A DNA stretch of 64,000 nt, from NCBI RefSeq assembly GCF_026626665.1, contig NZ_JAPNKE010000002.1, positions 3,693,168 to 3,757,167 of the forward strand, given 5' to 3'. The notes under the pieces are model-generated. The model had not been told where the DNA came from. It ran no database searches and saw nothing but the letters and a program-made list of their open reading frames with translations. This document shows positions 26,223-53,688 of this stretch, piece after piece. The number at the start of each line of letters is the position of its first letter. The first letter of the stretch is position 1. The translations under genes and the position numbers were made by a program. This DNA is from Nannocystis pusilla (GTDB lineage Bacteria > Myxococcota_A > Polyangia > Nannocystales > Nannocystaceae).

Positions 26223-27687
26223 ACCTCGAACCGATCAACTTCCTCCTCGTCGACGACACCGAGCAGAACCTCATCGCCCTCGAGGCGCTCCTGCGGCGCG
26301 ACGGCCTCAACATCCTCACCGCGCGCAGCGGCTTCGAGGCGCTCGAGCTGCTGCTCGTCCACGACGTCGCCCTCGCCTTCCTCGACGTGCAGATGCCGGG
26401 GATGGACGGCTTCGAGCTGGCCGAACTGATGCGAGGCACCGAGCGCACCAAGAACGTGCCGATCATCTTCATCACCGCCGGCGCGCGCGACAGCGAGCGG
26501 GTGTTCCAGGGCTACGAGTCCGGCGCGGTCGATTTCCTGCACAAGCCGATCGACCCGCGGGTGCTGCGGAGCAAGGCCGACGTGTTCTTCGAGCTGTCGC
26601 GGCAGCGGCGCGACTGCACCCACGCCCTGCGCCTCAACGAGATGTTCGTCGGCATCCTCGGCCACGACCTGCGCACCCCGCTGTCGGCGATCCAGACCGG
26701 CACCGAGATCCTCGAGCAGCTGGTGGAAGGCGACGACCAGCGCGGCATCTTGCGGCGCATGTTCGTCTCGAGCCACCGCATGAACGAGATGATCGAGCAG
26801 CTGCTCGACCTCACGCGCGCGGCTGGCCGGCGGCCTCGGCTTCGCGCGCGCGCCAACGGGTCGACCTCTTCGAGCTGGTGCAGCGCGCCGTCGACGAGCT
26901 GCGCACCACGCATTCGCAGCGCGAGGTCCGGGTCGAGACCCTCGGCGACACCGTCACCGCCGGCGATCCCGACCGCCTGGTCCAGGCGCTGTCGAACCTG
27001 ATCGGCAACGCGATCCAGCACGGCCACGCGGACGGCCCGATCGGCATCCGCGTGTTCGACGACGGCCACCAGATCGCGGTCGAGATCCGCAACCGCGGCG
27101 TCATCCCGCCCGAGCTCGTGCCGGTGCTGTTCGACCCGTTCCGCGGCCGCGACCACTCGCCCTCGCGCACCAACGCCCGCGGCCTCGGCCTCGGCCTCTA
27201 CATCGCCCAGCAGATCGCCCAGGCCCACGGCGGCACCGTCTCGGTGCTCTCGAGCGACGAGACCGACACCGTGTTCACGCTCCGCCTGCCGCGCGTCTCG
27301 CCCGAGCCCACGCGCGCCGATCGCCCGGCGCGCGGCCACACCGTGCTGATCGCCGACGACGACGAGGCGACCCGCGAGAGCCTGCGCGAGGCCTTCGCCG
27401 GCGAGGGTTACGCGACCATGACCGCGACCAACGGGCGCGACGCCCTCGACCAATTGCTGCACGCGCGGGTCAAGCCCGACCTCGTGATCCTCGACCTCGT
27501 GATGCCGCTGCTCGAGGGCGGGCAGGTCTATCAGGCCATGCAGGCCGTCCCCGAGCTGGCGCGGATCCCCGTCATCGTGTCGACCTCCGATCCGGCCCGC
27601 GCCCCCGCCGGCACGATCCTGATCCCCAAGCCGGTCAAGCTCGGCCGCCTGCTCGACACCGCCGCGCGGCTCGTCCGCTCGCCGTGA
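26219..27687 (+). CDS. hybrid histidine kinase/response regulator (REC-HisKA-HATPase-REC); frameshift near 26830
   Basis: N-terminal REC (LLVDDTEQN...DVQMPGMDGFEL). H-box GILGHDLRTPLSAI. HATPase GLGLGLYIAQQIAQAHGG. C-terminal REC (VLIADDDEATRE...DLVMP). Confidence 0.75.
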
Positions 27688-29595: not shown

Positions 29596-30908
29596 TCAGG
29601 GACGCGACCCGGGCCCGCCGTCGCCCTCGCTCCCGCTGCACCTCGCCGCGCCGGCGGGCGGCTCGTACATCGGCAGCGCCAGGCGGAAGCAGGCGCCGGG
29701 CCCGTCCGCGTCCTCGACCACGAGCGAGCCGCCGTGCGCCTGGACGATGCTGCGCGCCAGGTAGAGGCCGAGGCCGAGGCCGGACGACGTCGGCCCGAGG
29801 GCGAAGCGGTCGAACAGCGTCGGCAAGAGCTCGGCGGGGATGCCGGGGCCGAAGTCGCGGACGCGGACGAGGCTCCAGTTGGCGCCGTCGAACCGTTCGC
29901 GGCGGATCGTCAGCGACAACGCCGTCCCCTCCGGGGAGTGGGTGCTCGCGTTGTGGATCAGGTTCTCCAGCGCCTGCCGCAGCGCCTCGGGGTCGGCCCA
30001 CGCCAGCACCTGCGGCGGCGCCTCGATCTCGAGCGCCTGCCCGCTGGTGGCGAACAGCGCGGCGGTGCTGCGGGTCAGCTCGACCAGGTCGACCACCTGC
30101 AGCCGGAGGTCGAACAGGCCGCGCTCGATCCGCTCCACGCTGAGCAGGTTGGACAGCACCCGCCCCAGCCGCTCGACCCCGCTGCTCGCCTTGCTCAGCT
30201 CGTCGAGGTCCGCCGCGCGCGCTCCGCCTCCGCCCGCACCGTCAGCACGTCCAGCCGCGCGGCCAGCGGCGCGATCAGGTTGCGCAGGTCGTGCGCCACG
30301 ACCGAAATCAGCTCCTCGGCCGTCCGCTGGCGCGCGCGCTCGGCCGCCACGCGGGTGGCCTCCTCGACCAGCTCGGCGCGGTGGGTGACGACTCCGATCC
30401 ACTGGGCCACGGCGGTCAGGAACTCGAGGTCGCTCCAGCGGTACTTGTTCCTGCTCGCGGCCGTCACCATCAGCACCCCGCGGCGCTTGCCTTGCACCTC
30501 GATCGGCACCGCCATCGTCGACTGCACCTTGAGCCCCTCACGGATCCCCTGCAGTTCGCCGGCGTCGGCTTGCACGTCGTCGCACAGGTAGCGCTTGCCG
30601 GTCTGGAACACCTCGACCGCGCGGCCCCCGTTGCTCAGCGGCAGGCGATCGAGGCCGAGCGCGCGCTGGAGGCGGGACATCGGCGAATCACTGGTCCCGA
30701 TCGCCACCAGCGAATCGCGGGCGGCGTCGTGCAGGAACGCGTCCACCTTGTCGGTCTCGACCACCGAGGCCACGACCTCGCAGGCCGCATCGAGGGTCTC
30801 GCGGACCGACGTGACCGGCGTCGCCAGCAGCCGCGTCAGCGCCACGAACAGTGGGGAGTCGGGCGTGCGCTCGCCGGCTGGGGTTTCGGGCAGATCGACC
30901 ATGGGCAC
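29596..30908 (-). CDS. GAF-domain sensor histidine kinase; frameshift near 30210
   Basis: N-terminal GAF (..VDAFLHDAARDSLVAIGT..). H-box VVAHDLRNL. HATPase ..GLGLGLYLARSIVQAHGG... Confidence 0.7.
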
Positions 30909-31176
30909 ACGGACGTGCAGGCCCGGACCCTATGGACCCGACTCCGGCGATGGGCGAGCCCGCGCTCTCCGGCGGGCGGCGGCGCAGGGAGCAACTTCGC
31001 CCGCCGCATCGTCGCCGGATGCGGCGCGCCCGGGCGCAGGAAACGCACCGTCGGTCGCTTGCCCCGAAGTCGGGAAAACCCCCGCGAGCCGCCTCCGCGG
31101 CGCGCGAAGGCTCCGAGGCCCGCTCGAAGCCCCCGTGCCGCCCGGCCGCCGCGGCGCCCTGCTGTGATTGCCTGAA

Positions 31177-31186: not shown

Positions 31187-31262
31187 GATCGGCCATACTA
31201 TGAACGGCCGAGCCCGCCGGCCCTCGCTGGCGCCCCGGCGAATCGCCCGCATACTGCGCGGA

Positions 31263-33670: not shown

Positions 33671-34477
33671 ATGACCCGGATCCTGTCCCTCAACCTCGGC
33701 GGCTACGGCGATCGGCACGGCCCGTGGAGCGCTCGCCGGCCGCTCGTCGCCGCCATGCTCGCCGAGCAGCGGCCCGACCTCGTCGCCTTGCAGGCGGTCG
33801 CGCGCGACCCGGCGATCGAAGGCGGCAGCGACCAGGCGAGCCAGCTCGCGCGCGACGTCGGCGGCTACGAGGTCGTCTGGCGCCCCGCCGCGGCGGACAC
33901 CGACGGCCGTGAGCTCGGCCTCGCCTTGCTGTCGCGGGCGCCCGCGCTGGCCGTGCACGTCCGCCCGCTGACGCGCCGCCGCGACGCCGACGATCCCTTC
34001 GACCGCGTCCTGCTGCACGGCGTCTTCCCGTGGCCGCGCGGCCCGCTGCACGTCCTGTGCGCCCACCTGTCGTGGACCGAGGCGCAGGCCCGCGACAACG
34101 TCGGCGAGGTCCTCGGGTACCTCGCCGCGGTCCCCGGCCCCAGGCTCCTCCTCGGCGACTTCAACCAGACGCCCACCAGCGACGCGCTCGCCCGCCTGCT
34201 GGAAGCCGGCCTCGTCGACGCCTGGGCTGCGCGGTGCCCCGACCTCCCGGGTCACACCTTTTACGAGCGCGGCGCCCTGCGCAAACGCATCGATTATCTG
34301 CTGCTCGATCGTCAGCTCGCCGCGCGGCTCTGCGACGTCTCGCTCGTCCTCGACGGTCCGGGCGAGCGACGGGCCTCCGATCACGCCGGCCTGCTCGCGC
34401 GGCTCGCAAGCGGCGACGAGCGAGCCGACGTCATGGAATCGACGGACCAGGGTTTCCGCCAGCCCGCGCCCCGCTGA
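33671..34477 (+). CDS. endonuclease/exonuclease/phosphatase (EEP) family protein
   Basis: MTRILSLNLGG...PDLVALQAV...LLGDFNQTP...SDHAGLLARL. Confidence 0.7.
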   Translation: MTRILSLNLGGYGDRHGPWSARRPLVAAMLAEQRPDLVALQAVARDPAIEGGSDQASQLARDVGGYEVVWRPAAADTDGRELGLALLSRAPALAVHVRPLTRRRDADDPFDRVLLHGVFPWPRGPLHVLCAHLSWTEAQARDNVGEVLGYLAAVPGPRLLLGDFNQTPTSDALARLLEAGLVDAWAARCPDLPGHTFYERGALRKRIDYLLLDRQLAARLCDVSLVLDGPGERRASDHAGLLARLASGDERADVMESTDQGFRQPAPR

Positions 34478-34568: not shown

Positions 34569-35051
34569 ATGAACGGCCCGATGATCGAAACCGCTCAAGA
34601 CCCCACCATCTACCAGGTGATCCGCGAGCAGCACCGCGCCGTCGCGGAGCTGCTCGCCGAGCTGTCGCGCGAGCGGGACGTCGCGCGGGGGCAGCAGCTG
34701 TTCGGCCAGGTCCGCGACGCGCTCGAGCGCCACGCGCGGGCCGAGGAGGCCGTGTTCGACGACATCCTCGCCCAGCAGGACGCGCAGGGCAAGGCGCTGG
34801 TCAAGGACGCCGAGCGGGACCACGCGCAGGTCCGGCAGCAGCTCGCCGAGCTCGAGGCGATGCGGGCCGACGACGCCAAATGGGCGACGAAGGTCGAGGC
34901 GCTCACCCGCAGCGTCACCGATCACGTCGCGTTCGAGGAGAGCACGATCTTCGCCGCGGTCGAGGCCATCCTCGACGACGATCAGGCGCGCACCCTCGCC
35001 GAGACCTTCGAGGCGCTCGAATCACGGGTCGAGCCCGAGGCCGCCGCGTGA
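34569..35051 (+). CDS. hemerythrin-like domain protein
   Basis: IYQVIREQHRAV...LERHARAEEAVFDDIL...DHVAFEESTIFAAV, an H/E/D-rich four-helix pattern. Confidence 0.65.
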   Translation: MNGPMIETAQDPTIYQVIREQHRAVAELLAELSRERDVARGQQLFGQVRDALERHARAEEAVFDDILAQQDAQGKALVKDAERDHAQVRQQLAELEAMRADDAKWATKVEALTRSVTDHVAFEESTIFAAVEAILDDDQARTLAETFEALESRVEPEAAA

Positions 35052-35096: not shown

Positions 35097-36174
35097 ATGA
35101 GCGGAGTCGTATCACCGGAGTTCGTGCTCGCCTCGCGGGAGCCGGACCTGCGTGCGCGGATCGGCGGCCAGGTCCGCTCGCCGCGCGAGGTCGTGGTCAT
35201 GCGCGCCTTGCCGGGCCTCGGCGACTTCCTGTGCGCCACCCCGGCGCTGCGGGCCCTGCGAGCCGCGCTGCCGCGGGCCAGGATCACCCTCCTGGGCCTC
35301 GCCGGGGCCCGCGAGCTCGTCGCCCGCTACCCGCACCTCGTCGACGACCTGCTCGAGTTCCCCGGCTTCCCCGGCCTGCCCGAGACCCCCGCCGACGTGC
35401 GCGCCCTGCCCGACTTCCTGCGCGCGGTCCAGGGCCGCTTCGACCTCGCCCTGCAGATGCACGGCGACGGCCTCGTCAGCAACATCTTCGTCCAGCTGCT
35501 GGGCGCGCGCGAGCGCCGGCTTCTACGCCCCGCCGCAGCCGTGCCCCGATCCCGCGACCTTCGTGCTCTACCCCGGCGACTTCGCGGAGCCGCGGATCCT
35601 CCTCGCCTTGCTCGCCGCGCTCGGCATCGAGGCGCGCGGCGAGCGGCTCGAGTTCCCGCTCGCGCCGGACGACGCGCACCAGTGCGACGCATTGCTGCAG
35701 GCCGCCGGCCTCGCGCCCGACGCCGCGTTCGCGATCGTCCACCCCGGCGCCGCCGAGCCGCACCGCCGCGTCGACCCCGGCGTCCTCGCGCAGGTCGCCG
35801 ACGGCCTCGTGACCCGCGGCCTCGCGGTCGTCCTCACCGGCGCCGCCGACGAGGCCGACCTCGCCGCCGCGGTCCGCCGCCACGCCCAGCGCGACCTCGT
35901 CGATCGGGTCGGCCGCACCGGCCTCGGCTCGCTCGGCGCCCTGGTCGCGCGCGCTCGCCTCGTCGTCGCCGGCGACACCGGCGTCTCGCACCTCGCCAGC
36001 GCGCTGTGTACCCCGAGCGTCGTCGTCTTCCGCAGCACCGCCCCGGGCCGCTGGGCGCCCCTCGATCGCGTGCGTCACCGCGTCGTCGACGCCCGCGTGG
36101 TCGCGCCGACGGCCGCGGCGATCCTCGCCGAGGCCGACGCCGCCCTGTTCCTCGCGGGGGTGGATCGTGCTTGA
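35097..36174 (+). CDS. GT9-family glycosyltransferase (ADP-heptose heptosyltransferase-like); frameshift near 35515
   Basis: N-domain [23 protein letters not shown]-domain [24 protein letters not shown]. Confidence 0.65.
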
Positions 36175-36688
36175 CCCGCGGGTCGCCCTCCGCCGCGCTC
36201 GCCGGCTGCTCGTCGTCCCGCCCGCGGCCGGCTGCGACGAGCTCGGGCCGGCGCTCGTGCGCCTGCGCGTCGCGGTGCCGCAGGCGAAGGTGGTCCTGCT
36301 GGCCGACGCGCGCGCGGCCGGGCGCGTCGCCGCCTTCGTCGACCAGGTCGTGCCGGCCGGCGCCCTGACGCGGTTCGACGCCCCGCACCTCTCGACCCTG
36401 GTCGAGCGGCTGGCCGCAGCGCGCCTCGACGCCGCCCTGGTGTTCACGGCCGCCGGCGAGACCGCCTTCGAGGTCGCCTACCTCGCCTATCTCGCCGGCA
36501 TCCCGGTGCGCGCCGGCTTCGCCGGCGAGTTCGGCGGCGGCGTGCTGGCGCCGGCCGTCCCGCCCCCGTCGGCCCGCGTCATCGGTCCGGGGCGTCACCT
36601 CTCCCTGCTCGACGCGCTCGACCTGAGCGCGGCTCTCGCCCCCGCGAGCGCGAAAGCGAGGCCCTCGTGCGACGACTCCGCGTCCTGA
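36167..36688 (+). CDS. GT9 N-terminal-domain-only protein; possibly fused to the downstream GT4 by a frameshift
   Basis: GTG overlaps the upstream stop. Matches only the N-terminal Rossmann half of heptosyltransferases. It ends 20 nt into the next ORF in another frame. Confidence 0.4.
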
Positions 36689-37630
36689 CCTGGCACGTTC
36701 ACGGCAGCTACCTCTACTACCTCACCCAGGCCCCGCACGAGTTCTACCTGCCCGTAAAGCCAGGTCGTCCCGAGGGCTACGGCGGGCGCAGCGGCAGCTT
36801 CCCCTGGGGCGCCAACGTCCACGAGGTCCCGGTCGAAGCCGTCGCCCAGCAGCCATTCGACGTCGTCCTGTTCCAGTCGCGCCGCAACTACGAGTGCGAT
36901 CAATTCGAGGTCCTCGGCGCCGCCCAGCGCCGCCTGCCGCGCGTCTACCTCGAGCACGATCCGCCGCGCGAGTCGCCGACCGACACCCGCCACCCCGTCG
37001 ACGACCCCGACGTCTTGCTCGTCCACGTCACCCCGTTCAACGCCCTGATGTGGGACGCCGGGCGCACCCCCGTGCGGGTCGTCGAGCACGGCGTCGTCGT
37101 CCCCGACGACGCCGTCTACAGCGGCGAGCTCGCGCGCGGCGTCGTCGTCGTCAACGACCTCGCGCGGCGCGGGCGACGGCTCGGCCGCGACGTGTTCGAC
37201 CGCGTGCGCGCCCACGTCCCGCTCGACCTCGCCGGCATGGACTCGGCCGCGCTCGGCGGCCTCGGCGACCTGCCGCTGGGCGAGCTCCACGCCCGGCTCG
37301 GCCGCTACCGCTTCTTCTTCAACCCGATCCGCTACACCAGCCTCGGCCTGGCCGTGTGCGAGGCGATGATGATCGGCCTGCCGATCCTCGGCCTCGCCAC
37401 CACCGAGATGAGCACCGCCGTGCAGCGCGGCGTCAACGGCTACGTCGAGACCGACCTCGACCGCCTGCTCGCGCACATGCGGCGCCTGCTCGCCGATCCG
37501 GCCGAGGCCGCCGAGCTGGCCGCCGGCGCGCGGCGGATCGCCCGCCAGCGGTTCGGCATCGCCCGCTTCGCCGCCGACTGGTCGCGGATCCTGGGCGAGG
37601 TCACAGGCTGTCCCGAAGGACATCTAATAA
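36667..37630 (+). CDS. GT4-like glycosyltransferase; 3' end unresolved
   Basis: [19 protein letters not shown]...EAMMIGLPILG.... Frame 1 has no stop until 40098 and runs into a 78-bp repeat array with atypical codon usage. A +1 shift near 37595 would end at the double stop TAATAA (37625-37630). Confidence 0.5.
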
Positions 37631-38040
37631 CCCACGCTCGCGGATGTCCCGAGAGCCAGGTCGGAGCCCCGGCCGAGGTCACCGGGTGTCCGGATGGACA
37701 TGCCACCGCCCACGCCACGGGATGTCCCGAGAGCCAGGTCGGAGCCCCGGCCGCTCTCCAAGGATGTGCCGATGGACCTGCCATCGCCCACGCCACGGGA
37801 TGCCCCGAAAGCCAGGTCGGAGCCCCGGCCGATATCCCCGGATGTCCCGATGGACTAGCCACCACCGGCGCCACGGAATGTCCCGAGAGCCAGGTCGGAG
37901 CCCCGACCGACCTCCCCGGATGTCCCGATGGACAGGCTATCGCCCCACCCGGCTCCCCGGCATGTCCCGGAGACCAGGTCGGCCCCCTGGCCGGGATCAC
38001 CGCCTGTCCCGCGGGACAGGCCCCGGAGCCCCCCGGAGGA
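37598..38040. repeat. tandem array of ~5.6 copies of a 78-bp unit (one copy 84 bp) between the two GT4 genes; each unit carries GGATGTCCCGAGAGCCAGGTCGGAGCCCCGGCC and GTCCGGATGGACATGCC-like motifs; ends in the perfect palindrome CCTGTCCCGCGGGACAGG (37999-38016)
   Basis: Direct repeat boundaries at 37598, 37675, 37753, 37831, 37909 and 37993. GC3 of the in-frame reading is far below the local coding norm (gga/tgt/gat/cat codons). Confidence 0.7.
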
Positions 38041-38044
38041 CCGC

Positions 38045-39916
38045 GTGAAGCCGCTGCCGTTCGAGACCGGCGCCGGCGTCGGCCATTCGCAGAGCCCGCT
38101 GCGGATCGCCATGATCAGCGAGCACGCCTCGCCGCTCGCCCCGCTCGGCGGGCGCGACAGCGGCGGCCAGAACGTCTACGTCGCCCAGGTCGCGCGCCAC
38201 CTCGGCCGCCTCGGCCACCGCGTCGACGTGTTCACCCGCCGCGACAGCCCGACCTTGCCGGCGGTCGTCGAGCTGGCCGACGGCGTGCGCGTGATCCCGG
38301 TCGACGCCGGCCCGCCCGCGCCGCTGGCCAAGGAGTCGCTGCTGCCGCTCATGCCTGCCTTCACCCGCGAGGTCGCGGCCCACGCCCGGCGCGAGCGCTA
38401 CGACCTCGCGCACGCCAACTTCTTCATGAGCGGCCTCGTCGCCGCCGAGCTCAAGCGCGAGCTCGGCGTCCCGTTCGCGGTCACCTTCCACGCGCTCGGC
38501 AAGGTCCGGCGGCAGCACCAGGGCCAGGCCGACGGCTTCCCCGACGAGCGCTTCGCCATCGAGGCGCGGGTCGTCGGCGAGGCCGACCTGATCGTCGCCG
38601 AGTGTCCGCAGGACGAGGTCGACCTCATGACCCTCTACGCGGCCGACCCCGAGAAGCTGGTCATGATCCCGTGCGGCTTCGACCCCGAGGAGTTCTGGCC
38701 CGGCGGTCGCGCCGAGGCCCGCGCCGCGCTCGGCCTCGCCGACGGCGACCGCGTCGTCTTGCAGCTCGGGCGCATGGTCCCGCGCAAGGGCGTCGACAAC
38801 GTCATCCGCGCGCTCGCGCGGCTGCCGGGCGAGCTGCGCGCGCGGCTCGTCGTCGTCGGCGGCGAGTCGCGCCGGCCCGACCCGGCCCTCACCCCCGAGA
38901 TCGGCCGATTGATGGCGGTCGCCCGCGACGAGGGCGTCGCCGATCGCGTCACCTTCGTCGGCAGCCGCGGCCGCGGCGAGCTGCGCGACTACTACGTCGC
39001 CGCCGACGTATTCGTCAGCACCCCCTGGTACGAGCCGTTCGGCATCACCCCGCTCGAGGCCATGGCCTGCGGCGTCCCGGTCGTCGGCGCCAACGTCGGC
39101 GGCATCGCCCACACCGTCGCCCACGGCGAGACCGGCTACCTCGTCCCGCCGAGCGACCCCGACGCCCTGGCCGACAAGCTCGCCCTCGTGCTGTCGCAGC
39201 CGCGCCTGGCCCGGCGCCTGGCCCAGCTCGGCCTGCAGCGCGTCCACGCGTTGTTCACCTGGGAGAAGGTCGCCGCCCGCCTGGCCGACGCCTTCGCCGC
39301 GGCCGCGGGCCGGCGCCCCGCCCAGGCCCCCACCGCCGCCTTCGCCGCGGTCGATCGCGGCTTCGACGACCTCCTCGCGGTGCTCTCGCGCGCCAAGACC
39401 TGCCTGCGCGACGACATCGTCCGCGCCGCCGACCTCGTCAGCGGCGCCTTTGCCCGCGGCGCCAAGGTGCTCGTGTGCGGCAACGGCGGCAGCGCCACCG
39501 ACGCCCAGCACTTCGCCGCCGAGCTCGTCGGCCGCTTCCTCGCCCCCGACCGCGCCGCCTTGCCGGTCATCGCCCTCAACGCCGACACCGCGGTCCTGAC
39601 CGCGTGGGCCAACGACGTCGGCTACGCCGACGTGTTCGCCCGCCAGGTCCGCGCCTACGGCCGCCCCGGCGACGTGGTGTTCGGCATCTCGACCAGCGGG
39701 CGCTCGGCCAACGTCGTCGCCGCCCTCAAGACCGCGCGCGACTGCGGCCTGCGCACCTTCGCCTTGCTCGGCGGCACCGGCGGCGAGGCCGGCGATCTCG
39801 CCGACTGCGCCCTCATCGTCCCCTCCCCCGACACGCAGCGCATTCAGGAGGTCCACACATTGGCCCTCCACCTGATCTGCGAATTGGTCGAGGCGCGGGT
39901 GGCCCCGTCGTCCTGA
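38045..39916 (+). CDS. bifunctional GT4 glycosyltransferase (MshA-like) fused to SIS-domain sedoheptulose-7-phosphate isomerase (GmhA)
   Basis: RBS ggagga then GTG 38045 (alternative ATG 38111). GT4: LRIAMISEHASPL...GGQNVYV...EPFGITPLEAMACGVPVV. C-terminal SIS: VCGNGGSATDAQHFAAELVGRF...GISTSGRSANV. Confidence 0.75.
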   Translation: MKPLPFETGAGVGHSQSPLRIAMISEHASPLAPLGGRDSGGQNVYVAQVARHLGRLGHRVDVFTRRDSPTLPAVVELADGVRVIPVDAGPPAPLAKESLLPLMPAFTREVAAHARRERYDLAHANFFMSGLVAAELKRELGVPFAVTFHALGKVRRQHQGQADGFPDERFAIEARVVGEADLIVAECPQDEVDLMTLYAADPEKLVMIPCGFDPEEFWPGGRAEARAALGLADGDRVVLQLGRMVPRKGVDNVIRALARLPGELRARLVVVGGESRRPDPALTPEIGRLMAVARDEGVADRVTFVGSRGRGELRDYYVAADVFVSTPWYEPFGITPLEAMACGVPVVGANVGGIAHTVAHGETGYLVPPSDPDALADKLALVLSQPRLARRLAQLGLQRVHALFTWEKVAARLADAFAAAAGRRPAQAPTAAFAAVDRGFDDLLAVLSRAKTCLRDDIVRAADLVSGAFARGAKVLVCGNGGSATDAQHFAAELVGRFLAPDRAALPVIALNADTAVLTAWANDVGYADVFARQVRAYGRPGDVVFGISTSGRSANVVAALKTARDCGLRTFALLGGTGGEAGDLADCALIVPSPDTQRIQEVHTLALHLICELVEARVAPSS

Positions 39917-39928
39917 ATCATGGCCCCC

Positions 39929-40171
39929 GGAGGACCGATGACCCGCGTGTTCGCATCATCCCTCGCCACGACCGACCGCTCGGACCTCTGCATCGAATCA
40001 TCGCCATCGGAGGACCGATGACCCGCGTGATCGCATCTCTCGTCACCCGCGGCGGCTCCGGCCCCTGCATCGAATCATCGCCATCGGAGGACCGATGACC
40101 CGCGTGATCGCATCTCTCGTCACCCGCGGCGGCTCCGGCCCCTGCATCGAATCATCGCCATCGGAGGACCG
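39929..40171 (+). repeat. three tandem copies (80, 77, 77 nt) of the RBS + start codon + first ~20 codons of the downstream SDR gene; they form a chain of three ATGA-overlapping mini-ORFs (27, 26, 26 aa)
   Basis: ggaggaccgATGacccgcgtgatcgc... recurs at 39929, 40009 and 40086. The authentic gene starts at 40172. Each mini-ORF stop, TGA, overlaps the next ATG. Confidence 0.75.
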
Positions 40172-40912
40172 ATGACCCTCGTGATCGAATCACCCCTCGC
40201 GGACAAGATCGTCCTCGTCACCGGCGGCGGCTCGGGCCTCGGCGCCGAGATCGGTCGCACCCTCGCGGCCGCCGGCGCCCACGTGATCGCCGCCGACATT
40301 CAGACCGGCCCGCTCGCCCGCCTCGTCGCCGAGGTGCGCGACCTCGGCGGCCGCATCGAGGCGGCGGAGCTCGACGTCCGCGACGCCGACGCCGGCCAGG
40401 CCTTGGTCGACGGCATCGTCGCCCGCCACGGCCGGCTCGACGTCCTCGTCAACAACGCCGGCACCGACAAGACCTTGGCGGTCGACGAGCTCAGCGTCGA
40501 CGACATCGACCGCGTCCTCGCCGTCAACCTGCGCGGCCCGTTCGTCCTCAGCCGCGCCGCCTTCCCGCGCCTGCGCGCCCAGGGGGGCGGCTACATCGTC
40601 AACATCGTCTCGACCGCCGCCAAGCGGGCCTGGCAGAACGCCAGCGCCTACCACGCCAGCAAGTGGGGCCTTTTGGGCCTCTCGCACGCCCTGCACGTCG
40701 AGGGCCGCCCATTCGGCATCAAGGTCACCGCCCTGCTGGCCGGCGGCATGCGCACCCCCTTCATCCTCGACCGCTTCCCCGACACCCCGATCACCAACCT
40801 TCAGGACCCGCGCAACGTCGCCGAGACCATCCGCTTCCTCCTCGCCATGCCCGGCGAGTCGGTCATCCCCGAGCTGATGGTCGTGCCGATGCGCGAGACG
40901 AGCTGGCCATGA
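40172..40912 (+). CDS. classical SDR-family oxidoreductase
   Basis: VLVTGGGSGLGAEIG, NNAG, YHASKWGL. Intact. Overlaps gmhB via ATGA. Confidence 0.8.
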   Translation: MTLVIESPLADKIVLVTGGGSGLGAEIGRTLAAAGAHVIAADIQTGPLARLVAEVRDLGGRIEAAELDVRDADAGQALVDGIVARHGRLDVLVNNAGTDKTLAVDELSVDDIDRVLAVNLRGPFVLSRAAFPRLRAQGGGYIVNIVSTAAKRAWQNASAYHASKWGLLGLSHALHVEGRPFGIKVTALLAGGMRTPFILDRFPDTPITNLQDPRNVAETIRFLLAMPGESVIPELMVVPMRETSWP

Positions 40913-41553
40913 CCCGCCTCCGCCCCGCCGCCTTCCTCGACAAGGACGGCACCCTCATCGACGACGTCCCCTACAACGTCGACCCCGCCCACGTCCGCCT
41001 CACCCGCGGCGCCCGCGACGGCGCCTGGTCGCTGCGGGCCGCCGGCTACGCCCTCGTCGTCGTCACCAACCAGTCCGGCGTCGCCCGCGGCCTGTTCGGC
41101 GCCCACGACCTGCTCGGCGTCCAGGCCCGCGTCGAGGACCTCCTCGGCCTCGAGCTCGACGGCTTCTACTGGTGCCCGCACCTGCCCGCCGGCGTCGTCG
41201 CCGAGTACGCGATCGTCTGCGCCTGCCGCAAGCCCGCCCCCGGCCTGCTCACCCGCGCCGCCGCCGAGCTCGGCCTCGACCTCGCGCGCTCGTGGATGAT
41301 CGGCGACATCGCCAGCGACATCGAGGCCGGCCGCCGCGCCGGCTGCCGCACCGCCCTGCTCGCCGCCTCGCCGCCCCCGGCCCTGCGCCCCGCGCCCACC
41401 CTCGTCGCCGCCGACCTCGCCGAGGCCGCCCGCCGGATCGTCGGCGACGCCGCCCGCAGCGACCACGACGAGCACCCCGCGCCCCCGCCTGAGCGCCCGC
41501 GATGCTCTCTCGCAGCTCACGCTCGCCGGTCCTTAAAGACATGTCCTCCATGA
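40909..41553 (+). CDS. gmhB: D-glycero-D-manno-heptose 1,7-bisphosphate phosphatase (HAD family)
   Basis: AAFLDKDGTLI...VVVTNQSGVARG...CPHLP...CRKPAPGLL...MIGDIASDIEAG. Confidence 0.75.
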   Translation: MTRLRPAAFLDKDGTLIDDVPYNVDPAHVRLTRGARDGAWSLRAAGYALVVVTNQSGVARGLFGAHDLLGVQARVEDLLGLELDGFYWCPHLPAGVVAEYAIVCACRKPAPGLLTRAAAELGLDLARSWMIGDIASDIEAGRRAGCRTALLAASPPPALRPAPTLVAADLAEAARRIVGDAARSDHDEHPAPPPERPRCSLAAHARRSLKTCPP

Positions 41554-41587
41554 CATGTCCAAAAACGAATGTCCGAACGGACATGTT
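41538..41587. promoter_or_regulatory. cluster of four GACATGTCC-type motifs spaced 14 bp apart, including the inverted repeat ATGTCCG-aa-CGGACAT, in the AT-richer gmhB-hldE intergenic region
   Basis: agACATGTCCtccatgACATGTCCaaaaacgaATGTCCgaacGGACATgttc seen directly in the sequence. It lies upstream of the hldE ATG at 41633. Confidence 0.45.
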
Positions 41588-41632
41588 CTCAAAGGCATGG
41601 TTTAGAACACACCATCACCCGGAGCGCCCGCG

Positions 41633-43096
41633 ATGACCCACGTCCTGCTCCCCGTGCTCGACGCCTTCGCCGACCTGCGGACCCTCGTGATCGGCGAGGC
41701 CATGCTCGACGCCTACCTCGACGGCCACAGCGAGCGGCTGTGCCGCGAGGCCCCGGTGCCCGTCGTCGACGTCGACGCGCGCCGCGACGTCCCCGGCGGC
41801 GGCGCCAACACGGCCGTCAACGCGGCCGCGCTCGAGGCCCGGGTCACCTTCCTCTCCGTCGTCGGCGGCGACGACGAGGCCGACCGCCTGGCGCGCTCGC
41901 TGGCCGCCCTCGGCGTCCCCGCCCACGGCCTCGTGCGCGCCGGCGGGCGCCGCACCCTCGTCAAGCAGCGCGTCCTCGCCGGCGGCCAGATCCTCCTGCG
42001 CCTCGACGCCGGCAGCCGCGACGACCTCGACCCCGTCACCGAGGCCCGCCTGTGCGAGCGCCTGCGGGCCGCCTGGAGCGACGTCGACGCCGTCATCGTC
42101 TCCGACTACGGCTACGGCCTCCTCACGGGCGGCGTGATCGACGAGCTCGCCGCACTGCAGGCCGCCCACCCGCGCGTCCTCGTCGCCGACGCCAAGGACC
42201 TGCGCCGGCTAGCGCGCGCCCGGCCCACCGCCGTCAAGCCCAACTACTGCGAGGCCGCGCGCCTGCTCGGCCTCGCCAATGGCCACGGCGACGGCCGCGT
42301 CGAGCAGATCGCCGCCCACGAGGCCGAGTTCCTGCAGATCACCGGCGCGCGGATCGCCGCCGTCACCCTCGACTGCGCCGGCGCCCTGGTCTTCGAGACA
42401 GGTCAGCCCGCCTACCGCACCTACGCCCGGCCCTCCTCCGACGCCAACGCCACCGGCGCCGGCGACACCTTCGTCGGCGCCCTCGCCCTCGCCCTCGCCG
42501 CCGGCGCCCCGACCCACGCCTGCGCCGACCTGGCCTCGAGCGCCGCCAGCCTCGTGGTCGCGCGCGACGGCACCACCGCCTGCAGCGCCGCCGAGCTGCG
42601 CGTCCACCTCGCCTCGCAGGACAAGCTGCTCGGCCACGACGACCTCGCCCTGCTCGCCGACTGCCTGCACCGCGCCGGCAAGCGGCTCGTGTTCACCAAC
42701 GGCTGCTTCGACATCCTCCACCGCGGCCACATCACCTGCCTCAGCCGCGCCAAGGCGCTGGGCGACGTCCTGATCGTCGGCCTCAACGCCGACGCCAGCG
42801 TCCGCCGGCTCAAGGGCGCCGCTCGCCCGATCAACTGCGCCGCCGATCGGGCCCAGGTGCTGGCCGCCCTCTCGTGCGTCGACCACATCGTCGAGTTCGC
42901 CGACGACACCCCGACCCGCCTCATCGAGCTCGCGCGGCCCGACGTCTACGTCAAGGGCGGCGACTACAGCCTCGACAAGCTGCCCGAGGCCCCGCTCGTG
43001 TCGCGCCTCGGCGGCGAGGTCTGCTTCATGCCCTACCTCGACGATGTCAGCACCACCGGGATCCTCGCGCGGATCGGCGAACGAGGCCCGGGATGA
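41633..43096 (+). CDS. hldE: bifunctional D-beta-D-heptose 7-phosphate kinase / D-beta-D-heptose 1-phosphate adenylyltransferase
   Basis: N-terminal PfkB kinase domain (GGGANTAVN...NATGAGDTF). C-terminal cytidylyltransferase domain (FTNGCFDILHRGH). Intact. Confidence 0.9.
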   Translation: MTHVLLPVLDAFADLRTLVIGEAMLDAYLDGHSERLCREAPVPVVDVDARRDVPGGGANTAVNAAALEARVTFLSVVGGDDEADRLARSLAALGVPAHGLVRAGGRRTLVKQRVLAGGQILLRLDAGSRDDLDPVTEARLCERLRAAWSDVDAVIVSDYGYGLLTGGVIDELAALQAAHPRVLVADAKDLRRLARARPTAVKPNYCEAARLLGLANGHGDGRVEQIAAHEAEFLQITGARIAAVTLDCAGALVFETGQPAYRTYARPSSDANATGAGDTFVGALALALAAGAPTHACADLASSAASLVVARDGTTACSAAELRVHLASQDKLLGHDDLALLADCLHRAGKRLVFTNGCFDILHRGHITCLSRAKALGDVLIVGLNADASVRRLKGAARPINCAADRAQVLAALSCVDHIVEFADDTPTRLIELARPDVYVKGGDYSLDKLPEAPLVSRLGGEVCFMPYLDDVSTTGILARIGERGPG

Positions 43097-44196
43097 CCTG
43101 GTCGTCCGCCCGCCGCGTCCTGTGCGTCCGCCTCGACACCGTCGGCGACGTGCTCATGACCACCCCGGCCCTGCGCGCGCTCAAGGAGGGTCACCCGCAG
43201 CGCCACCTCACCCTCCTCACCTCGAGCCCCGGCGCCCTCGTCGGCCGCCTCGTGCCCGAGGTCGACGACGTCTGGACCTACGACGCCGCCTGGCTCAAGG
43301 CCGGCCCCGCGCGCCGCGACGCCAGCCTCGACCGCGGCGTGATCGACCGCCTCCGCGCCGGCCGCTTCGACGCCGCCGTCGTCTTCACCGTCTACAGCCA
43401 GAACCCGCTGCCCGCCGCCCTCCTCGCCTGGCTCGCCGACATCCCGCTGCGCCTGGCTCACTGCCGCGAGAACCCCTACCAGCTCCTCACCGACTGGATC
43501 CCCGAGACCGAGCCCGAGCGCGGCGTGCGGCACGAGGTCACCCGCCAGCTCGACCTCGTCGCCGCCGTCGGCCTGCGCCCCTCGCATCATCGACTGTCCC
43601 TCCGGCCATGTCCCGAAGACCACCTCGCGGCCGAGGCCGAGCTCCGCCCCCTGCGCCTCGGCCGGCGCTGGGCCGTCGTCCACCCCGGCGCCACCGCCAG
43701 CTCGCGCCGCTACCCGCCCGCCGCCTTCGCCGTGGTCGCCCGCGCCCTCGTCCGCGACCACGGCGTCGGCCTCGTGTTCACCGGCGCCGGCGACGAGGTC
43801 CCTCTGGTCGAGCAGATCCGCGGCGCCGCCGGCGTCCCCACCCACTCCCTCGCCGGCCGCCTCTCGCTCGGCGCCCTCGCGGCCGTGATCGCCCGCGCCG
43901 GCCTGCTCATCAGCAACAACACCGGCCCCGCCCACGTCGCCGCCGCCGTGGGCACCCCCGTCGTCGACCTCTACGCCCTCACCAACCCGCAGCACACCCC
44001 CTGGGCCGTCCCCGCGCGGGTCCTGAACCACCCGGTCCCGTGCGCCCCCTGCTACCGCTCGACCTGTCCCGAAGGCCATCACCTGTGCCTGCGCGGCGTC
44101 CCCCCGGCCGCGGTCGTCGCCGCCGCCCTCGAGCTGCTGCGCCCCGACCCCCGCGAAGCCCCCACCGCCGCCCCGGTCCCCCTCGCCCTCACGTGA
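43093..44196 (+). CDS. GT9 heptosyltransferase
   Basis: ATGA overlap with hldE. RVLCVRLDTVGDVLMTTPALRAL..., C-domain ...NNTGPAHVAAAVGTPVVDLY. Intact. Confidence 0.8.
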   Translation: MTWSSARRVLCVRLDTVGDVLMTTPALRALKEGHPQRHLTLLTSSPGALVGRLVPEVDDVWTYDAAWLKAGPARRDASLDRGVIDRLRAGRFDAAVVFTVYSQNPLPAALLAWLADIPLRLAHCRENPYQLLTDWIPETEPERGVRHEVTRQLDLVAAVGLRPSHHRLSLRPCPEDHLAAEAELRPLRLGRRWAVVHPGATASSRRYPPAAFAVVARALVRDHGVGLVFTGAGDEVPLVEQIRGAAGVPTHSLAGRLSLGALAAVIARAGLLISNNTGPAHVAAAVGTPVVDLYALTNPQHTPWAVPARVLNHPVPCAPCYRSTCPEGHHLCLRGVPPAAVVAAALELLRPDPREAPTAAPVPLALT

Positions 44197-44247
44197 CGCG
44201 TCGCCTCGACCGCAACCCCACTTCGAATCACTCGCCTCCTCGATGTC

Positions 44248-45603
44248 ATGAGTCCCATGTCTCCACGCAACGACCTGCTCCCCGACGTCGCCCCGCTCGC
44301 CCTCGATCCCCGGCCGCGGCTCGGCCGCGACTACTCGCGGCTGACCGGCCCGGGCCCGGCCGCGCTGCTCGAGCGGGCGCGCCTCCTCGACGGGTCGCGC
44401 GTGCGGCGGATCCTCGTCGTCCGGCTCGACAACCTCGGCGACATCATCCTCACCGGCCCGGCCCTGCGCGCGCTCAAGGCCCATCTCCCGCACGTCCACC
44501 TCACCCTGCTCGCCAGCCCCGGCGGCGCCGCCGCGGCCGCCCTGCTGCCGTGGGTCGACGCCGTCGAGCCCTGCCGCGCCCTGTGGCAGGACCTGGGCCG
44601 CCTCGCCTTCGATCCCGCGCGCGAGCGCGAGCTCATCGCCACCCTGCGGCGCGGCGAGTACGACCTCGCCTTCATCCTCACCAGCTTCCGCCAGAGCCCG
44701 CACCCGGCCGCCGTCGTCTGCGCCATGGCCGGCATCCCTGTGCGGATCGGCGAGTCGCGCGAGCGCGGGCGGGCCCTCACCGTCGCCCTCCCGCACGCCG
44801 ACGACGGCCTCCATCAGAGCGAGCGCAACCTTCAACTCGTCGAGCGCCTCGGCGTGCCGGTCGTCGATCGCCGGCTCGAAATCCGCCTCCCGCGGCCCGC
44901 CTGGACCGCCGCCCAGGCCCGCCTGGCCGCCCACGGCGTCGCCGGCGACTACCTCGTGTGGAACCCCTTCGCCAGCTGCGCCGCGCGCACCTACGACCCC
45001 TTGCGCCACGCCCTCGCCGCCCGCGCTCTGGCCGAGTACGCCGACCTGCGCCTGCTCGTCTGCGGCGCCGCCCGCGACCGCGAGCGCGCCCGCGAGCTCC
45101 TGCCGCTGCTCGGCCCGCGCGGCCTCGACCTGGTCGGAGAGACAGATCTGCCCGAGTTCGCCGCCCTCCTCGCCGGCGCCCGCCTCGTCCTCACCAACAA
45201 CACCGCCGCCCTCCACCTCGCCGACGCCCTCGCGGTGCCCCAGCTCGTCACCTACGCCGGTACCGACCGCGACAGCCAGTGGATGCCCCGCACCTCGCCC
45301 CACCGCCTCCTGCGCCGCCCCACCGCCTGCACCCCCTGCTATCGCTTCGCCTGCCCGACCGGCCACGAGTGCCTCGCCCTGGCCCCCGCCGAGGTCCTCG
45401 CCGCCGGCCTCTCGCTGCTCGCCGAGACCGCCGTGCGCGTGAAGCCCGGAGCGGCGAGCGCTCGTGCGCGTGACGTGAGAGCGCAGCAGCGCCGCCGCGG
45501 CGGCAGGCTGCTGACCGACCTGCCGCGCGTCCGACCGAGCTCGCAACGAGCGCGGCGCCGCTACGGCGCGGGGCACACGCCCTTGTCGTTGTACCCGTCG
45601 TAG
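44248..45603 (+). CDS. GT9 heptosyltransferase (second copy); C-terminal ~50 aa look non-native and overlap the convergent gene
   Basis: RILVVRLDNLGDIILTGPALRAL..., C-domain ...NNTAALHLADALAVPQLV. Confidence 0.7.
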   Translation: MSPMSPRNDLLPDVAPLALDPRPRLGRDYSRLTGPGPAALLERARLLDGSRVRRILVVRLDNLGDIILTGPALRALKAHLPHVHLTLLASPGGAAAAALLPWVDAVEPCRALWQDLGRLAFDPARERELIATLRRGEYDLAFILTSFRQSPHPAAVVCAMAGIPVRIGESRERGRALTVALPHADDGLHQSERNLQLVERLGVPVVDRRLEIRLPRPAWTAAQARLAAHGVAGDYLVWNPFASCAARTYDPLRHALAARALAEYADLRLLVCGAARDRERARELLPLLGPRGLDLVGETDLPEFAALLAGARLVLTNNTAALHLADALAVPQLVTYAGTDRDSQWMPRTSPHRLLRRPTACTPCYRFACPTGHECLALAPAEVLAAGLSLLAETAVRVKPGAASARARDVRAQQRRRGGRLLTDLPRVRPSSQRARRRYGAGHTPLSLYPS

Positions 45604-51074: not shown

Positions 51075-52487
51075 GATCACCAATCGGCGCCGGAGGACCG
51101 GGTCGAAGGGGCGCTCAGCCCCGCAGCTCCACGAGGTTCGCAACGAACGCTCGTGCGCGGATGGAGGAGGTTCTCGGGCAGGGACGGCGCGTCGGCGTGA
51201 TCATGAGGAATGAACGTCGGTGCGGAGGCATCAAAATGCATGGAGTCCAGGGATTGCGAGCGAGGACGTCCTCCGACGATCGCTCGCAGCAGCAGAGGCG
51301 GCTGACTATAACAGACGGCCGTCCGCCGCCGCCAGCCGTGAATCGCAGCGGCGGCCGCTCCGCCCGGCGGAGCGAGCGCCGCGCCGCAAGGCGACTATGA
51401 TCATAGCGCGCCCGCCGATCGCCCTGCGTCCGCGAATGGCCGACCCTCTCGCAAGTAGCGACGATCGGTCGCAGCCTCGACGCCCCGGCCATGCACCAGC
51501 ATCAATCTCCGCGATCTCACGCCGCGCGGGCACGGGGGCCCGTCACCGGCGTCTCTTGCCGGCATTCGCCCCCCATTCGCCGCTGCCGCCTCCCGGCACA
51601 TTCACCTCCGCAGAGCCCGCTGGTTCGCCGGTCCGCGCGCCGCCGGAGCCCCCCAATTACATCCTACCGGGTCCTGCGAGCACGACCGGAAATCCCCCAC
51701 CTGCGCGGGCATTTGCCAGGTTGACCGCTGTCCCCGGGCCAATTAGCCCAGTGTGATGTCCCCCCGCAACGAGCAAACCCGGCAGCGCTCCGGGACGAGA
51801 CTATCGTCTGCAACTTGACGTATCAAACCCGGCGCTTCCTGGTGCTCCGCGGCGACCTCGAGCTGGCCGGCATCGATCGGGCGCTGCAGCCGCGCTCGCA
51901 GATCGAGGCGAGGTTCGACTCTCTGTGGCAGACGGCGCTCGAGCCGGCGCTGCGGGCCGGTCTCGAGCTCACGTTCGCCGAGCGATGCGGCGCCTCGCCG
52001 CCGCTCGTGGCGCTACGAGAATCGCAGCCATGGCGACCGCCGATTGCCCGCCGCTCTCGCTCTTCGCGGCGACGCGCTGCGGTGATTCCACGCCACCCGG
52101 AGCGCCCCTCGCTCGGCGTCGCCGAATGCTCGCCCTCACCGAGCGTCGCGATACGTCGATTCGTAAGCGTTCGCTCTACCGCGTCGTGATGCTGGCGCAT
52201 CTTGATTTATATCTCATGTGTGAGCACCGAATCTGCCTTCACCCCGCTGGCCCCGTGCTGGCTGGGGCTCGCGTTGTGGTCACCGACCCTGCTTACGGGC
52301 CATCCGCGCGGGATCCCCGAAGAAGAAATCGAGGATATCTGCGACGGCCTGTTCGGCCGTATCCCACGCGTGTACGAAATCTCCTGGTCCCGGCCCAGAC
52401 TCCCAGTCTTCGGAGCTGACGATCCACTGGCCGCTCGCGCGGTGCAGCACGAGCGATGGTGCGTCACACACCGGCCCGTCGAGCCGC

Positions 52488-52745
52488 CTGGAGCTGCCGA
52501 TCGAGCGCGGCCTCGCCGGCCCCGGCCTCCTCGCCGACACGATCGTCCATCGCTGGCAAGACCACCTGCCCGCGAACCGCCTCGAGGCGCTCTACGCCCG
52601 CGACGGCCTCCAGCTCGCGCGCTCGACGATCTGCGGCTGGCACGAGCAGCTCGCCGACCTCGTCGAGGCGCGCTGGCGGCTGTTGGCGGCGAGCGGGGTG
52701 TCGCTGGAGCAGGCCGCGCTCGAGATCGGCGTGGCAGTGGTCGAG
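52488..52745 (+). mobile_element. degenerate internal fragment of an IS66-family transposase
   Basis: Frame-3 translation PIERGLAGPGLLADTIVHRWQDHLPANRLEALYARDGLQLARSTICGWHEQLADLVEARW matches the conserved IS66 TnpC core (P-x-ERG-x-AGPGLLA...LPLYRQ...RSTLA.W). There is no intact ORF on either side. Confidence 0.5.
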
Positions 52746-53119
52746 TTGCGCGCGTGGTCACGAAGCGCGGAGGGCGAGGCGAGGTGGAGAAGGAGCGCCG
52801 GCAATTCGAGGCGATCGTCGGGGCGCACGTGCGCGAGGGACTACCGAGTCCATGGGACTGTCTGGCGGCGACGATGGCGAGCAGCTGGGCCGCCCTCTCC
52901 CGCGGCAGGGCGATCTCGATCGAGACGGTGTACTTCATGGTGGAGCGCTCCAGGTTCTCACGCGGACCCTCTACGACTCAGGCACTTGACCCGGTGCGGG
53001 AATTACGGCATGAAACTTCTTAAGCACAAGACAAGACAAACCGGTTCACCTTCAAGTGACCCATAAACAGGGCATGCCGGTTCCGGCCCCGAAACAGACA
53101 TTGAAGAAAGCAGGATAAG

Positions 53120-53374
53120 ATGAATATTGATCAAATGATCGAGGCGGCAGTCCACGTCAATGAACTGCAAAGATTTCAAAACTATTATCTGATTAATTTT
53201 TACGGCGGTTCTATCGGATGGCCGATGAGAGTGCCGGCCGACTATAGTGATGGCTACTGCAACATACGAGCCGAACCGGGTGAATGGGCGAGAGACGATC
53301 AGCGCCTCCAATGGCGCTTCAACGATGCGCAAGGCCTGCATCGGGCCCTAATTATCCGGGGCTTAAACCTGTGA
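53120..53374 (+). CDS. hypothetical small protein A (84 aa) in a low-GC island
   Basis: RBS aagcAGGAtaag then ATG. Local GC is roughly 45-50% against ~70% in the flanks. No recognisable domain. Confidence 0.4.
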   Translation: MNIDQMIEAAVHVNELQRFQNYYLINFYGGSIGWPMRVPADYSDGYCNIRAEPGEWARDDQRLQWRFNDAQGLHRALIIRGLNL

Positions 53375-53688
53375 CAGTTGTAAGCAGGTTCAACGCTGTG
53401 TTCGCGTTCCAGGATGATACGACTACCGAGGATATCGCTTTTCCATTTTATAGAATAAAGGGGCACTCTGGCTTGAATGCCGCGTTCGAGGATCGCGCCA
53501 ACTTTGGGCTTGTGCCGGTCGAGGAAACGAAATGGTTCAATATAATCTCCTTGGCGACTTTCAACGGATCGCCAACATTTATCAGTTGTGGCCCCAAAAA
53601 TGAGCCGAGCGTCTGGGCTGAGCCGGAATCATGGGCCAAGAAAGGTGTCAGCGACCTGCGATGGATCGCCGTCCCCGCGACGGAGTAG
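53371..53688 (+). CDS. hypothetical small protein B (105 aa), GTGA-coupled to protein A; alternatively A+B are one gene with a frameshift
   Basis: GTG 53371 overlaps the TGA 53372-74 of gene A. Low-GC composition continues to 53688. W/F-rich, beta-strand-like sequence. Confidence 0.35.
   Translation: MTVVSRFNAVFAFQDDTTTEDIAFPFYRIKGHSGLNAAFEDRANFGLVPVEETKWFNIISLATFNGSPTFISCGPKNEPSVWAEPESWAKKGVSDLRWIAVPATE

Follow-up and report, generated by a model that had tools for sequence, protein, structure and literature searches.

Which molecule is built by a gene cluster that carries its own heptose activation enzymes, and does it belong to lipopolysaccharide (LPS)? This question is raised by a locus of Nannocystis pusilla, contained in a 64,000-nucleotide stretch of contig NZ_JAPNKE010000002.1 (assembly GCF_026626665.1, positions 3,693,168 to 3,757,167), which we call the window. 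An initial annotation, made from the DNA letters alone, had described there a heptose-based glycosylation cluster with an unusual fusion of a family 4 glycosyltransferase (GT4) to the isomerase GmhA. According to our comparison, the Nannocystis locus is a copy of a widespread cassette, spread vertically and horizontally, and the window copy is an ordinary orthologue of it. We propose, with modest confidence, that the cassette supplies its own D-glycero-D-manno-heptose in nucleotide-activated form, as the building block of a heptose-containing oligosaccharide that is not part of LPS.

A heptose cassette conserved across phyla

The G+C content of the window is 70-75% and its lists of open reading frames (ORFs) are rich in spurious frames; genes were called by third-position GC frame analysis and families were assigned with Pfam and NCBIfam. 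A co-directional block was obtained on the + strand, from 35097 to ~45450, with these genes:

35097..36174, + strand: GT9A, family 9 glycosyltransferase (Pfam PF01075)
36167..36688, + strand: ORF173, stand-alone N-terminal half-GT9 of 173 aa, overlapping its neighbours by 8 and 22 nt
36667..38048, + strand: GT4s, small atypical GT4-like transferase with a C-terminal repeat tail (Pfam GT1 C-terminal domain)
38045..39916, + strand: GT4::GmhA fusion, 623 aa, GTG start (Pfam Glyco_transf_4, Glycos_transf_1 and SIS_2; NCBIfam)
40172..40912, + strand: classical SDR, 246 aa (Pfam PF00106, 176 bits)
40909..41553 as read, + strand: GmhB-type HAD-IIIA phosphatase (Pfam, NCBIfam, motifs)
41633..43096, + strand: HldE-type bifunctional kinase/nucleotidyltransferase (Pfam PfkB and CTP_transf_like; NCBIfam)
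43093..44196, + strand: GT9B, family 9 glycosyltransferase (Pfam, 105 bits)
44248..45603 as read, + strand: GT9C, family 9 glycosyltransferase (Pfam)

About 8000 candidates were scored in a search with the fusion protein. The best 120 were inspected, and all of them are full-length proteins with GT4 and SIS domains, at 58-99% identity, from hosts that include Deinococcus, Chloroflexota, Cyanobacteria and Actinomycetota. A scan of one genome per species found the fusion encoded in at least 584 species genomes, a count that is itself a lower bound. The fusion thus cannot be called uncommon, as it had been in the initial annotation.

When all cassette proteins were mapped by tblastn onto the 80 best loci, a recurring order appeared: GT9A-(GT9 or half-GT9)-GT4s-GT4::SIS-SDR-HAD-HldE-GT9B, usually with a further GT9, at 50-67% identity to the Nannocystis proteins. 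The complete map comprised 83 loci, and this order is kept across at least six phyla. Its hosts are Nannocystis, Cyanobacteria, Chloroflexota, Actinomycetota, Bacteroidota (often without the SDR), Balneolaceae, Nitrospiraceae, and a gammaproteobacterial and a Roizmanbacteria metagenome-assembled genome. The order found in the window is the one by which the cross-phylum cassette was operationally defined. Clustering of all ORFs from 76 loci, many of them on truncated contigs, gave families present in 76, 68, 60, 59, 59, 57 and 56 loci. Two features that had been taken for local oddities turned out to be regular parts of the design. The SDR wedged between isomerase and phosphatase holds this same position in 59 of the 76 loci. 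ORF173, formerly described as an ORF with only the N-terminal domain, is conserved in at least 23 loci, and a full-length GT9 takes its place in several Chloroflexota and Actinomycetota loci.

Other loci carry accessory genes, including a PucR-type regulator (24 loci), GT2 enzymes (23 and 15) and a NodU/CmcH-type carbamoyltransferase (20). A census of the flanks (137 ORFs from 44 loci) added more GT1/GT4, GT2 and GT9 genes, PucR-type regulators and carbamoyltransferases; flippase, polymerase, ligase and priming phosphoglycosyl-transferase genes are absent from its 25 commonest families. We found no publication on the fusion, the cassette, its function or its product.

The fusion protein and its companion enzymes

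The window fusion shares 98-99% of its residues with the N. pusilla and Nannocystis sp. ILAH1 proteins, and 95% with its N. exedens counterpart. Like the other members of its family (~620-660 aa), which are annotated as 'glycosyltransferase' or 'phosphoheptose isomerase', it joins a two-lobed GT4 domain at the N-terminus to a SIS domain at the C-terminus, and its Pfam domains span positions 37928-39916 of the window. The SIS domain aligns over its full length to solved GmhA structures, including 1tk9 and 2xbl. Residues H489, E493, Q601 and H609 do not vary within the family alignment; they correspond to the metal and catalytic residues of Burkholderia pseudomallei GmhA, which we take to be H64, E68, Q175 and H183. 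With the whole fusion as query, the GmhA equivalog models score below their cutoffs (TIGR00441, 188.9 against 209.45; NF010546, 192.7 against 276). Judged from these alignments and scores, the SIS domain is GmhA-like, as initially annotated, and not a certified equivalog.

The best solved relatives of the GT4 domain are the sucrose-phosphate synthase (SPS) of Thermosynechococcus, TeSPS (6kih, profile E-value 1e-101), and MshA of mycothiol synthesis (3c48). TeSPS binds the phosphate of sucrose-6-phosphate through R105 and R178, and needs H158 and E331 (PMC7264703). These residues (R105, R178, H158, E331) align to K96, R169, H149 and E330 of the fusion, all of them invariant in the family. The domain scores below the equivalog models for MshA (289.7 against 462.5) and for the SPS N-domain (122 against 576), and a Pfam 'GT4-conflict' match of 60 bits is far below the generic GT4 matches.

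Motifs and model scores were also compared for the remaining members of the heptose pathway. The phosphatase shows DKDGT (DxDGT), TNQSG, the CPH...CACRKP zinc loop and GDIASD (GDxxxD); it passes the HAD-IIIA and histidinol-phosphatase-domain models and scores below the GmhB cutoffs (TIGR00213, 115 against 149.6; NF006506, 121 against 178). In HldE, the nucleotidyltransferase domain is above its cutoff (TIGR02199, 194.2 against 181.5), whereas the kinase domain (TIGR02198, 218 against 345) and the full-length model (NF008454, 351 against 521) are below theirs. At the position of HldE aligned by eye, with uncertain placement, to the 'STTR5' motif of nucleotide specificity, the residue is not Arg. 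An HldD query gave no match in the window or in any related locus; the epimerase had already been reported missing.

Among the transferases, the Pfam GT9 fold is present in GT9A, GT9B and GT9C. None of them reaches the HepI, HepII or HepIII equivalog cutoffs, the best being GT9B on HepII (127.2 against 134.6), whose structural matches are 3tov and 1psw. ORF173, without a Pfam or NCBIfam match, corresponds by homology to the N-terminal half of GT9B/C proteins (hhalign against that family: probability 100%, E-value 4e-38, residues 24-192). In the GT4s family, the first Glu of the EX7E motif is replaced. The SDR has the TGGGSGLG cofactor motif (TGxxxGxG) and YxxxK, with only generic relatives. 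As it is a classical SDR of 246 aa and not an extended one, a 4,6-dehydratase or deoxy-sugar role was rejected, and the deoxy-modified glycan suggested earlier is unlikely.

The families listed at the outset for this cluster were essentially right. ATGA stop/start overlaps are found at the SDR/HAD and HldE/GT9B junctions, the former at the junction where the SDR had been described as coupled to gmhB. Transmembrane-like segments were detected in none of the cassette proteins. A role in anti-phage defence was discarded, as 0 of 9 cassette proteins match PADLOC models at E <= 1e-5.

Frame breaks, repeats and neighbours of the window copy

The window copy is of lower value than the cassette itself: it is an ordinary orthologue in a sequence with many probable indel errors. 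The frame breaks were located by comparison with N. pusilla (L001, L084), ILAH1-type (L085, L086) and N. exedens (L002) loci. In GT9A, two bases of a (GC)n run are absent at ~35512 compared with L001, L002 and L084. The GT9 ORF of the initial annotation (35097-36368) is therefore not one gene frame: GT9A switches frame at that point and ends at 36174, and restoring the two bases gives 359 aa, ~97% identical to the N. pusilla orthologue. In GT4s, one C is missing from a C-run at ~38026, which puts the stop (a GTGA overlap) out of frame, so that the ORF runs on to 40098; the restored protein has 460 aa. A fusion of GT4s to the GT4::GmhA gene was ruled out, as both are in different frames and relatives show the GTGA stop/start overlap. 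In the HAD gene, one base absent at 41486 puts the stop at 41490-41492 out of frame and makes the ORF 20 aa too long. Two bases are absent from a (GC)n run of GT9C at ~45440. Relatives stop at the equivalent of ~45444, according to the 3' alignment with L084, and the ORF as read is ~50 aa too long.

These breaks could be real and the cluster a decaying pseudogene in this strain, perhaps with slipped-strand switches at simple repeats. All four frame-disrupting indels of the cassette lie in (GC)n or C runs, three of them in the final ~25 codons, a region in which true mutations would be tolerated. Moreover, the complete genome of N. pusilla (L001, CP185339.1, 7360723-7382594) shows other breaks in this cluster, namely single-base insertions in ORF173 and GT4s. 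Its matches to the SDR, the HAD phosphatase and an FAD-oxidoreductase are also split, and this record too looks error-prone. In the window, genes unrelated to the cassette are broken too: an SDR gene at 17032-17896 (~17.4 kb), a CHASE3-GAF-HisKA-HATPase-REC hybrid kinase spread over 3-4 frames (21231-24811), a REC-HisKA / HATPase-REC hybrid kinase (26219-27687) and the GAF histidine kinase at 30222 (29596-30929), the last two and the SDR being split between frames. This points to assembly error. Besides, the restored genes carry no other sign of decay, and in three other N. pusilla-group assemblies all cassette genes are intact. We conclude that the window breaks are most likely assembly indels, and consider true decay distinctly unlikely.

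The other features in and beside the block are:

33671..34477, + strand: exo/endonuclease/phosphatase (EEP) family gene, a flank gene outside the cross-phylum cassette (PF03372 on the L001, L002 and L084 orthologues)
34569..35051, + strand: hemerythrin-like gene, a flank gene (PF01814 on orthologues; NCBIfam PA2171-family match)
37603..38040, + strand: tandem array A (Tandem Repeats Finder, TRF)
39915..40191, + strand: tandem array B (TRF)
41541..41584: two palindromes ATGTCC-N4-GGACAT in an AT-richer spacer 5' of hldE

Hemerythrin and EEP genes thus flank the cluster, as was noted at first. The EEP gene lies beside the cassette only in Nannocystis loci of the tblastn map, and counterparts of the hemerythrin gene near the cassette are weak and limited to a few cyanobacterial loci (L020, L022, L034).

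Array A consists of 11 units of 36-42 bp with a 78-bp super-period. Read in frame, it encodes 12-14-aa 'GCP(E/D)GQ...' repeats, which form the C-terminal extension of GT4s in relatives. Many units hold the palindrome TGTCC-N4-GGACA, and a motif search gave 9 matches against 0.18 expected. The number of units is 1 in N. exedens, 1 in N. bainbridge, 3 in ILAH1, 5 and 9 in two N. pusilla genomes and 11 in the window, and intact or restored copies of GT4s measure 328, 352, 434 and 460 (restored) aa. Array B has 3.6 copies of a 77-bp unit, in which the ribosome-binding site GGAGGA is followed by an ATG and the beginning of the SDR coding sequence; every upstream copy forms a mini-ORF of 26 codons that closes in an ATGA overlap with the next start (motif search, 4 matches against 0 expected). 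One copy is found in each of N. exedens, N. bainbridge and ILAH1, two in the two N. pusilla genomes and ~4 in the window. All copies of both arrays within the window are local to the locus, so they are not dispersed repeats. Both arrays are peculiar to the N. pusilla lineage, and so stand outside the conserved design of the cassette.

The palindrome ATGTCC-N4-GGACAT, with at most one mismatch, occurs at 7 sites between 29.5 and 41.6 kb (29575, 31181, 37608, 37686, 37920, 41541 and 41569), whereas 0.04 would be expected in the entire window. Some of them fall in array A and two in the HAD-hldE spacer; others are found between a zinc-dependent alcohol dehydrogenase (Zn-ADH) gene and a kinase gene, and just 5' of the gene at 31200. 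Copies are syntenic in other Nannocystis genomes, and 5 matches were found in 1.38 Mb of non-Nannocystis loci. The HAD-hldE spacer, 80 bp in the window, is ~400 bp in N. exedens (L002, 13218-13625), with three ~35-nt elements around the palindrome. The palindrome could act as an operator or as an mRNA hairpin.

Scans for sigma-70 promoters and terminators were uninformative, and Rfam gave no riboswitch or cis-regulatory RNA within the cluster. Its sole match, to the nhaA-I riboswitch family, lies elsewhere in the window, at 13555-13605 on the - strand (51.6 bits, gathering score 37). The stretch 52001-54000 has a G+C fraction of 0.625, against 0.70-0.75 elsewhere in the window, and may be foreign or non-coding DNA.

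Proposed product and comparison with known systems

In the route that we propose, domain identities and conserved residues are observed and we infer the rest. The C-terminal GmhA domain, whose residues are in place, would convert sedoheptulose-7-phosphate into heptose-7-phosphate. Judging from family membership, the pathway would be self-contained up to ADP-D,D-heptose, and the activated sugar would not be epimerised to the L,D form, as HldD is missing. With no epimerase found, D-glycero-D-manno-heptose is the expected sugar, in line with the initial annotation. The N-terminal GT4 domain may transfer a hexose to an acceptor that bears a phosphate, the best candidate being the 7-phospho-heptose or heptulose on which the fused isomerase acts, and so form a primer. 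The three GT9 enzymes would then add heptose and GT4s a further sugar, with the half-GT9 possibly acting as an accessory subunit. The classical SDR may perform a redox tailoring step, and in other phyla the carbamoyltransferase may likewise tailor the product. As no carrier-lipid, flippase or polymerase gene is linked to the cassette, assembly probably takes place in the cytoplasm, on an acceptor that is soluble or already present.

Several points weigh against this proposal. The fusion by itself is no proof that the GT4 domain uses the product of the isomerase, and the donors and acceptors considered for all transferases are tentative. All pathway enzymes score under the NCBIfam equivalog cutoffs, the HldE nucleotidyltransferase domain being the sole exception, so the substrates may differ from those of the textbook pathway. 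No biochemical or genetic data on any cassette member were found in the literature. Genes for export or attachment could be located elsewhere in the genome. Finally, Nannocystis is diderm, and a link to its outer-membrane glycolipid is conceivable.

The cluster could instead be the inner-core heptosylation locus of Nannocystis LPS or lipooligosaccharide (LOS), its GT9 enzymes acting on 3-deoxy-D-manno-octulosonate (Kdo)-lipid A like WaaC, WaaF and WaaQ. GT9 proteins are best known as LPS heptosyltransferases, the 127 bits of GT9B on HepII come near the cutoff of 134.6, and its solved relatives include WaaF (1psw). The Pseudomonas LPS core carries 7-O-carbamoyl-heptose, which the carbamoyltransferase genes of cassettes in other phyla recall. 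The initial annotation had itself considered that this might be the standard LPS core locus of all relatives. One half of this is true, since all Nannocystis genomes examined contain the cluster; nevertheless, it does not resemble an LPS core locus. Such a locus would be restricted to LPS producers and linked to Kdo transferase, lipid A, core or ligase genes, which was observed neither within 10 kb of the cassette in Nannocystis (where Kdo transferase, lipid A and O-antigen genes are all absent) nor among the 25 commonest flank families elsewhere. All GT9s are under the HepI/II/III cutoffs and HldD was not found. Moreover, Nannocystis shares this gene order with Chloroflexota and Actinomycetota, which are established as lacking LPS. 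The presence of the cassette in LPS-less phyla argues against an acceptor of the Kdo2-lipid A type for the GT9s of those hosts. Thus an LPS core locus is unlikely, and the non-LPS target suspected at first is likely, given those phyla and the lack of linked Kdo or lipid A genes.

Very unlikely, in our opinion, is a role in protein glycosylation, by which ADP-heptose-dependent transferases would decorate an S-layer, an adhesin or another protein in the manner of autotransporter heptosyltransferases. It would fit the apparent solubility of all cassette proteins and the lack of linked lipid-carrier genes, and nucleotide-activated heptose (NDP-heptose) does serve protein O-heptosylation in E. coli (PMC11461863). 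However, no candidate target protein is conserved beside the cassette, the GT4 domain has retained the phosphate ligands seen in enzymes acting on phosphosugars, and at least five transferases suggest an oligosaccharide rather than decoration by a single sugar.

Returning to a non-LPS heptose oligosaccharide, an unfused version of the cassette gives some clues about its setting. It is found on secondary replicons of Burkholderia, Paraburkholderia, Cupriavidus and Ralstonia, for instance on a megaplasmid of B. multivorans (NZ_CP143553, 313593-349000, L087/L088). Identities to the Nannocystis proteins are 57% for the GT4, 63% for GT4s, 57% for GT9B, 43% for GT9A, 55% for the SDR and 54% for the HAD phosphatase. 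This island carries a carbamoyltransferase, and its Zn-ADH is 51% identical to the one encoded 5' of the Nannocystis cassette. It differs in that the GT4 is unfused and neither gmhA nor hldE is present. B. multivorans has LPS heptose genes elsewhere in its genome, and an island lacking gmhA and hldE in such a host fits a need of the cassette for ADP-heptose. The neighbours of the island are BON, DUF892, DUF4142, DUF2795, Zn-ADH, PIG-L deacetylase, UDP-glucuronate-decarboxylase-like and sigma-54 regulator genes, a context that hints at a stress setting. Papers on the low-oxygen (lxa) genes of Burkholderia, which may or may not cover the B. multivorans island, do not mention heptose.

It is tempting to speculate further that the product is a soluble, sucrose- or trehalose-like heptose glycoside or a short heptose oligosaccharide, which would protect soil and mat bacteria under stress or during dormancy. 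Its primer, a hexosyl-heptose(heptulose)-7-phosphate, would be made by GT4::GmhA and dephosphorylated by the GmhB-like phosphatase. We advance this idea tentatively, with rather low confidence. Hints of it are the hosts of the cassette (Deinococcus, crust- and mat-forming cyanobacteria, Chloroflexota, soil Bacteroidota and Nannocystis), the BON, DUF892, DUF4142 and sigma-54 regulator genes around the Burkholderia version, and the hemerythrin, GAF kinase and Zn-ADH genes adjoining the Nannocystis one. If true, it would define a new class of bacterial carbohydrate and answer what NDP-heptose is used for in LPS-less bacteria.

Compared with known systems, the cassette resembles the LPS heptose pathway in that the same four enzyme families lead from sedoheptulose-7-phosphate to activated heptose and GT9s are the consumers, and in the presence of the GmhA residues, the GmhB motifs and both HldE domains. 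It differs by the lack of HldD and of linked Kdo or lipid A genes, the fusion of GmhA to a GT4, the equivalog scores under cutoff, the occurrence in LPS-less phyla, and the additional SDR, small GT4 and half-GT9.

Heptose activation outside LPS has also been described. GDP-D,D-heptose leads to S-layer glycan or capsule, and ADP-heptose to septacidin or hygromycin B in actinomycetes. According to the summary of Tang et al. 2024 given in PMC11461863, heptose biosynthetic enzymes are widespread beyond LPS producers, with the role of the product left open. The cassette shares with these systems the activation of heptose outside LPS, in Gram-positive or non-classical bacteria. In contrast to them, it is of the HldE type rather than HddA/HddC and contains no aminotransferase, nucleoside or aglycone genes, and the conservation of its genes from phylum to phylum goes far beyond that of a typical natural-product cluster. 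With a full heptose-activation pathway and five transferases in a fixed order in at least six phyla, it offers a concrete candidate for the use of NDP-heptose outside LPS, and as a whole represents an uncharacterised variant of NDP-heptose glycan biosynthesis.

The third likeness is to SPS (TeSPS, Tll1590, PDB 6KIH), with its sucrose-phosphate phosphatase (SPP), and to MshA (PDB 3C48). The acceptor of both SPS and MshA is a sugar or cyclitol that carries a phosphate, and their product is subsequently processed by a dedicated phosphatase. In the GT4 domain the ligands of the acceptor phosphate and the catalytic His and Glu are conserved, and a HAD phosphatase is encoded two genes 3' of the fusion, which matches this scheme of transfer to a phosphosugar followed by removal of the phosphate. 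Unlike these enzymes, the fusion joins the GT4 to a heptose-phosphate isomerase and not to an SPP-like domain, and its cassette additionally makes NDP-heptose and has three GT9s. The SPS-like acceptor site of the fusion provides a direct biochemical entry point into this system.

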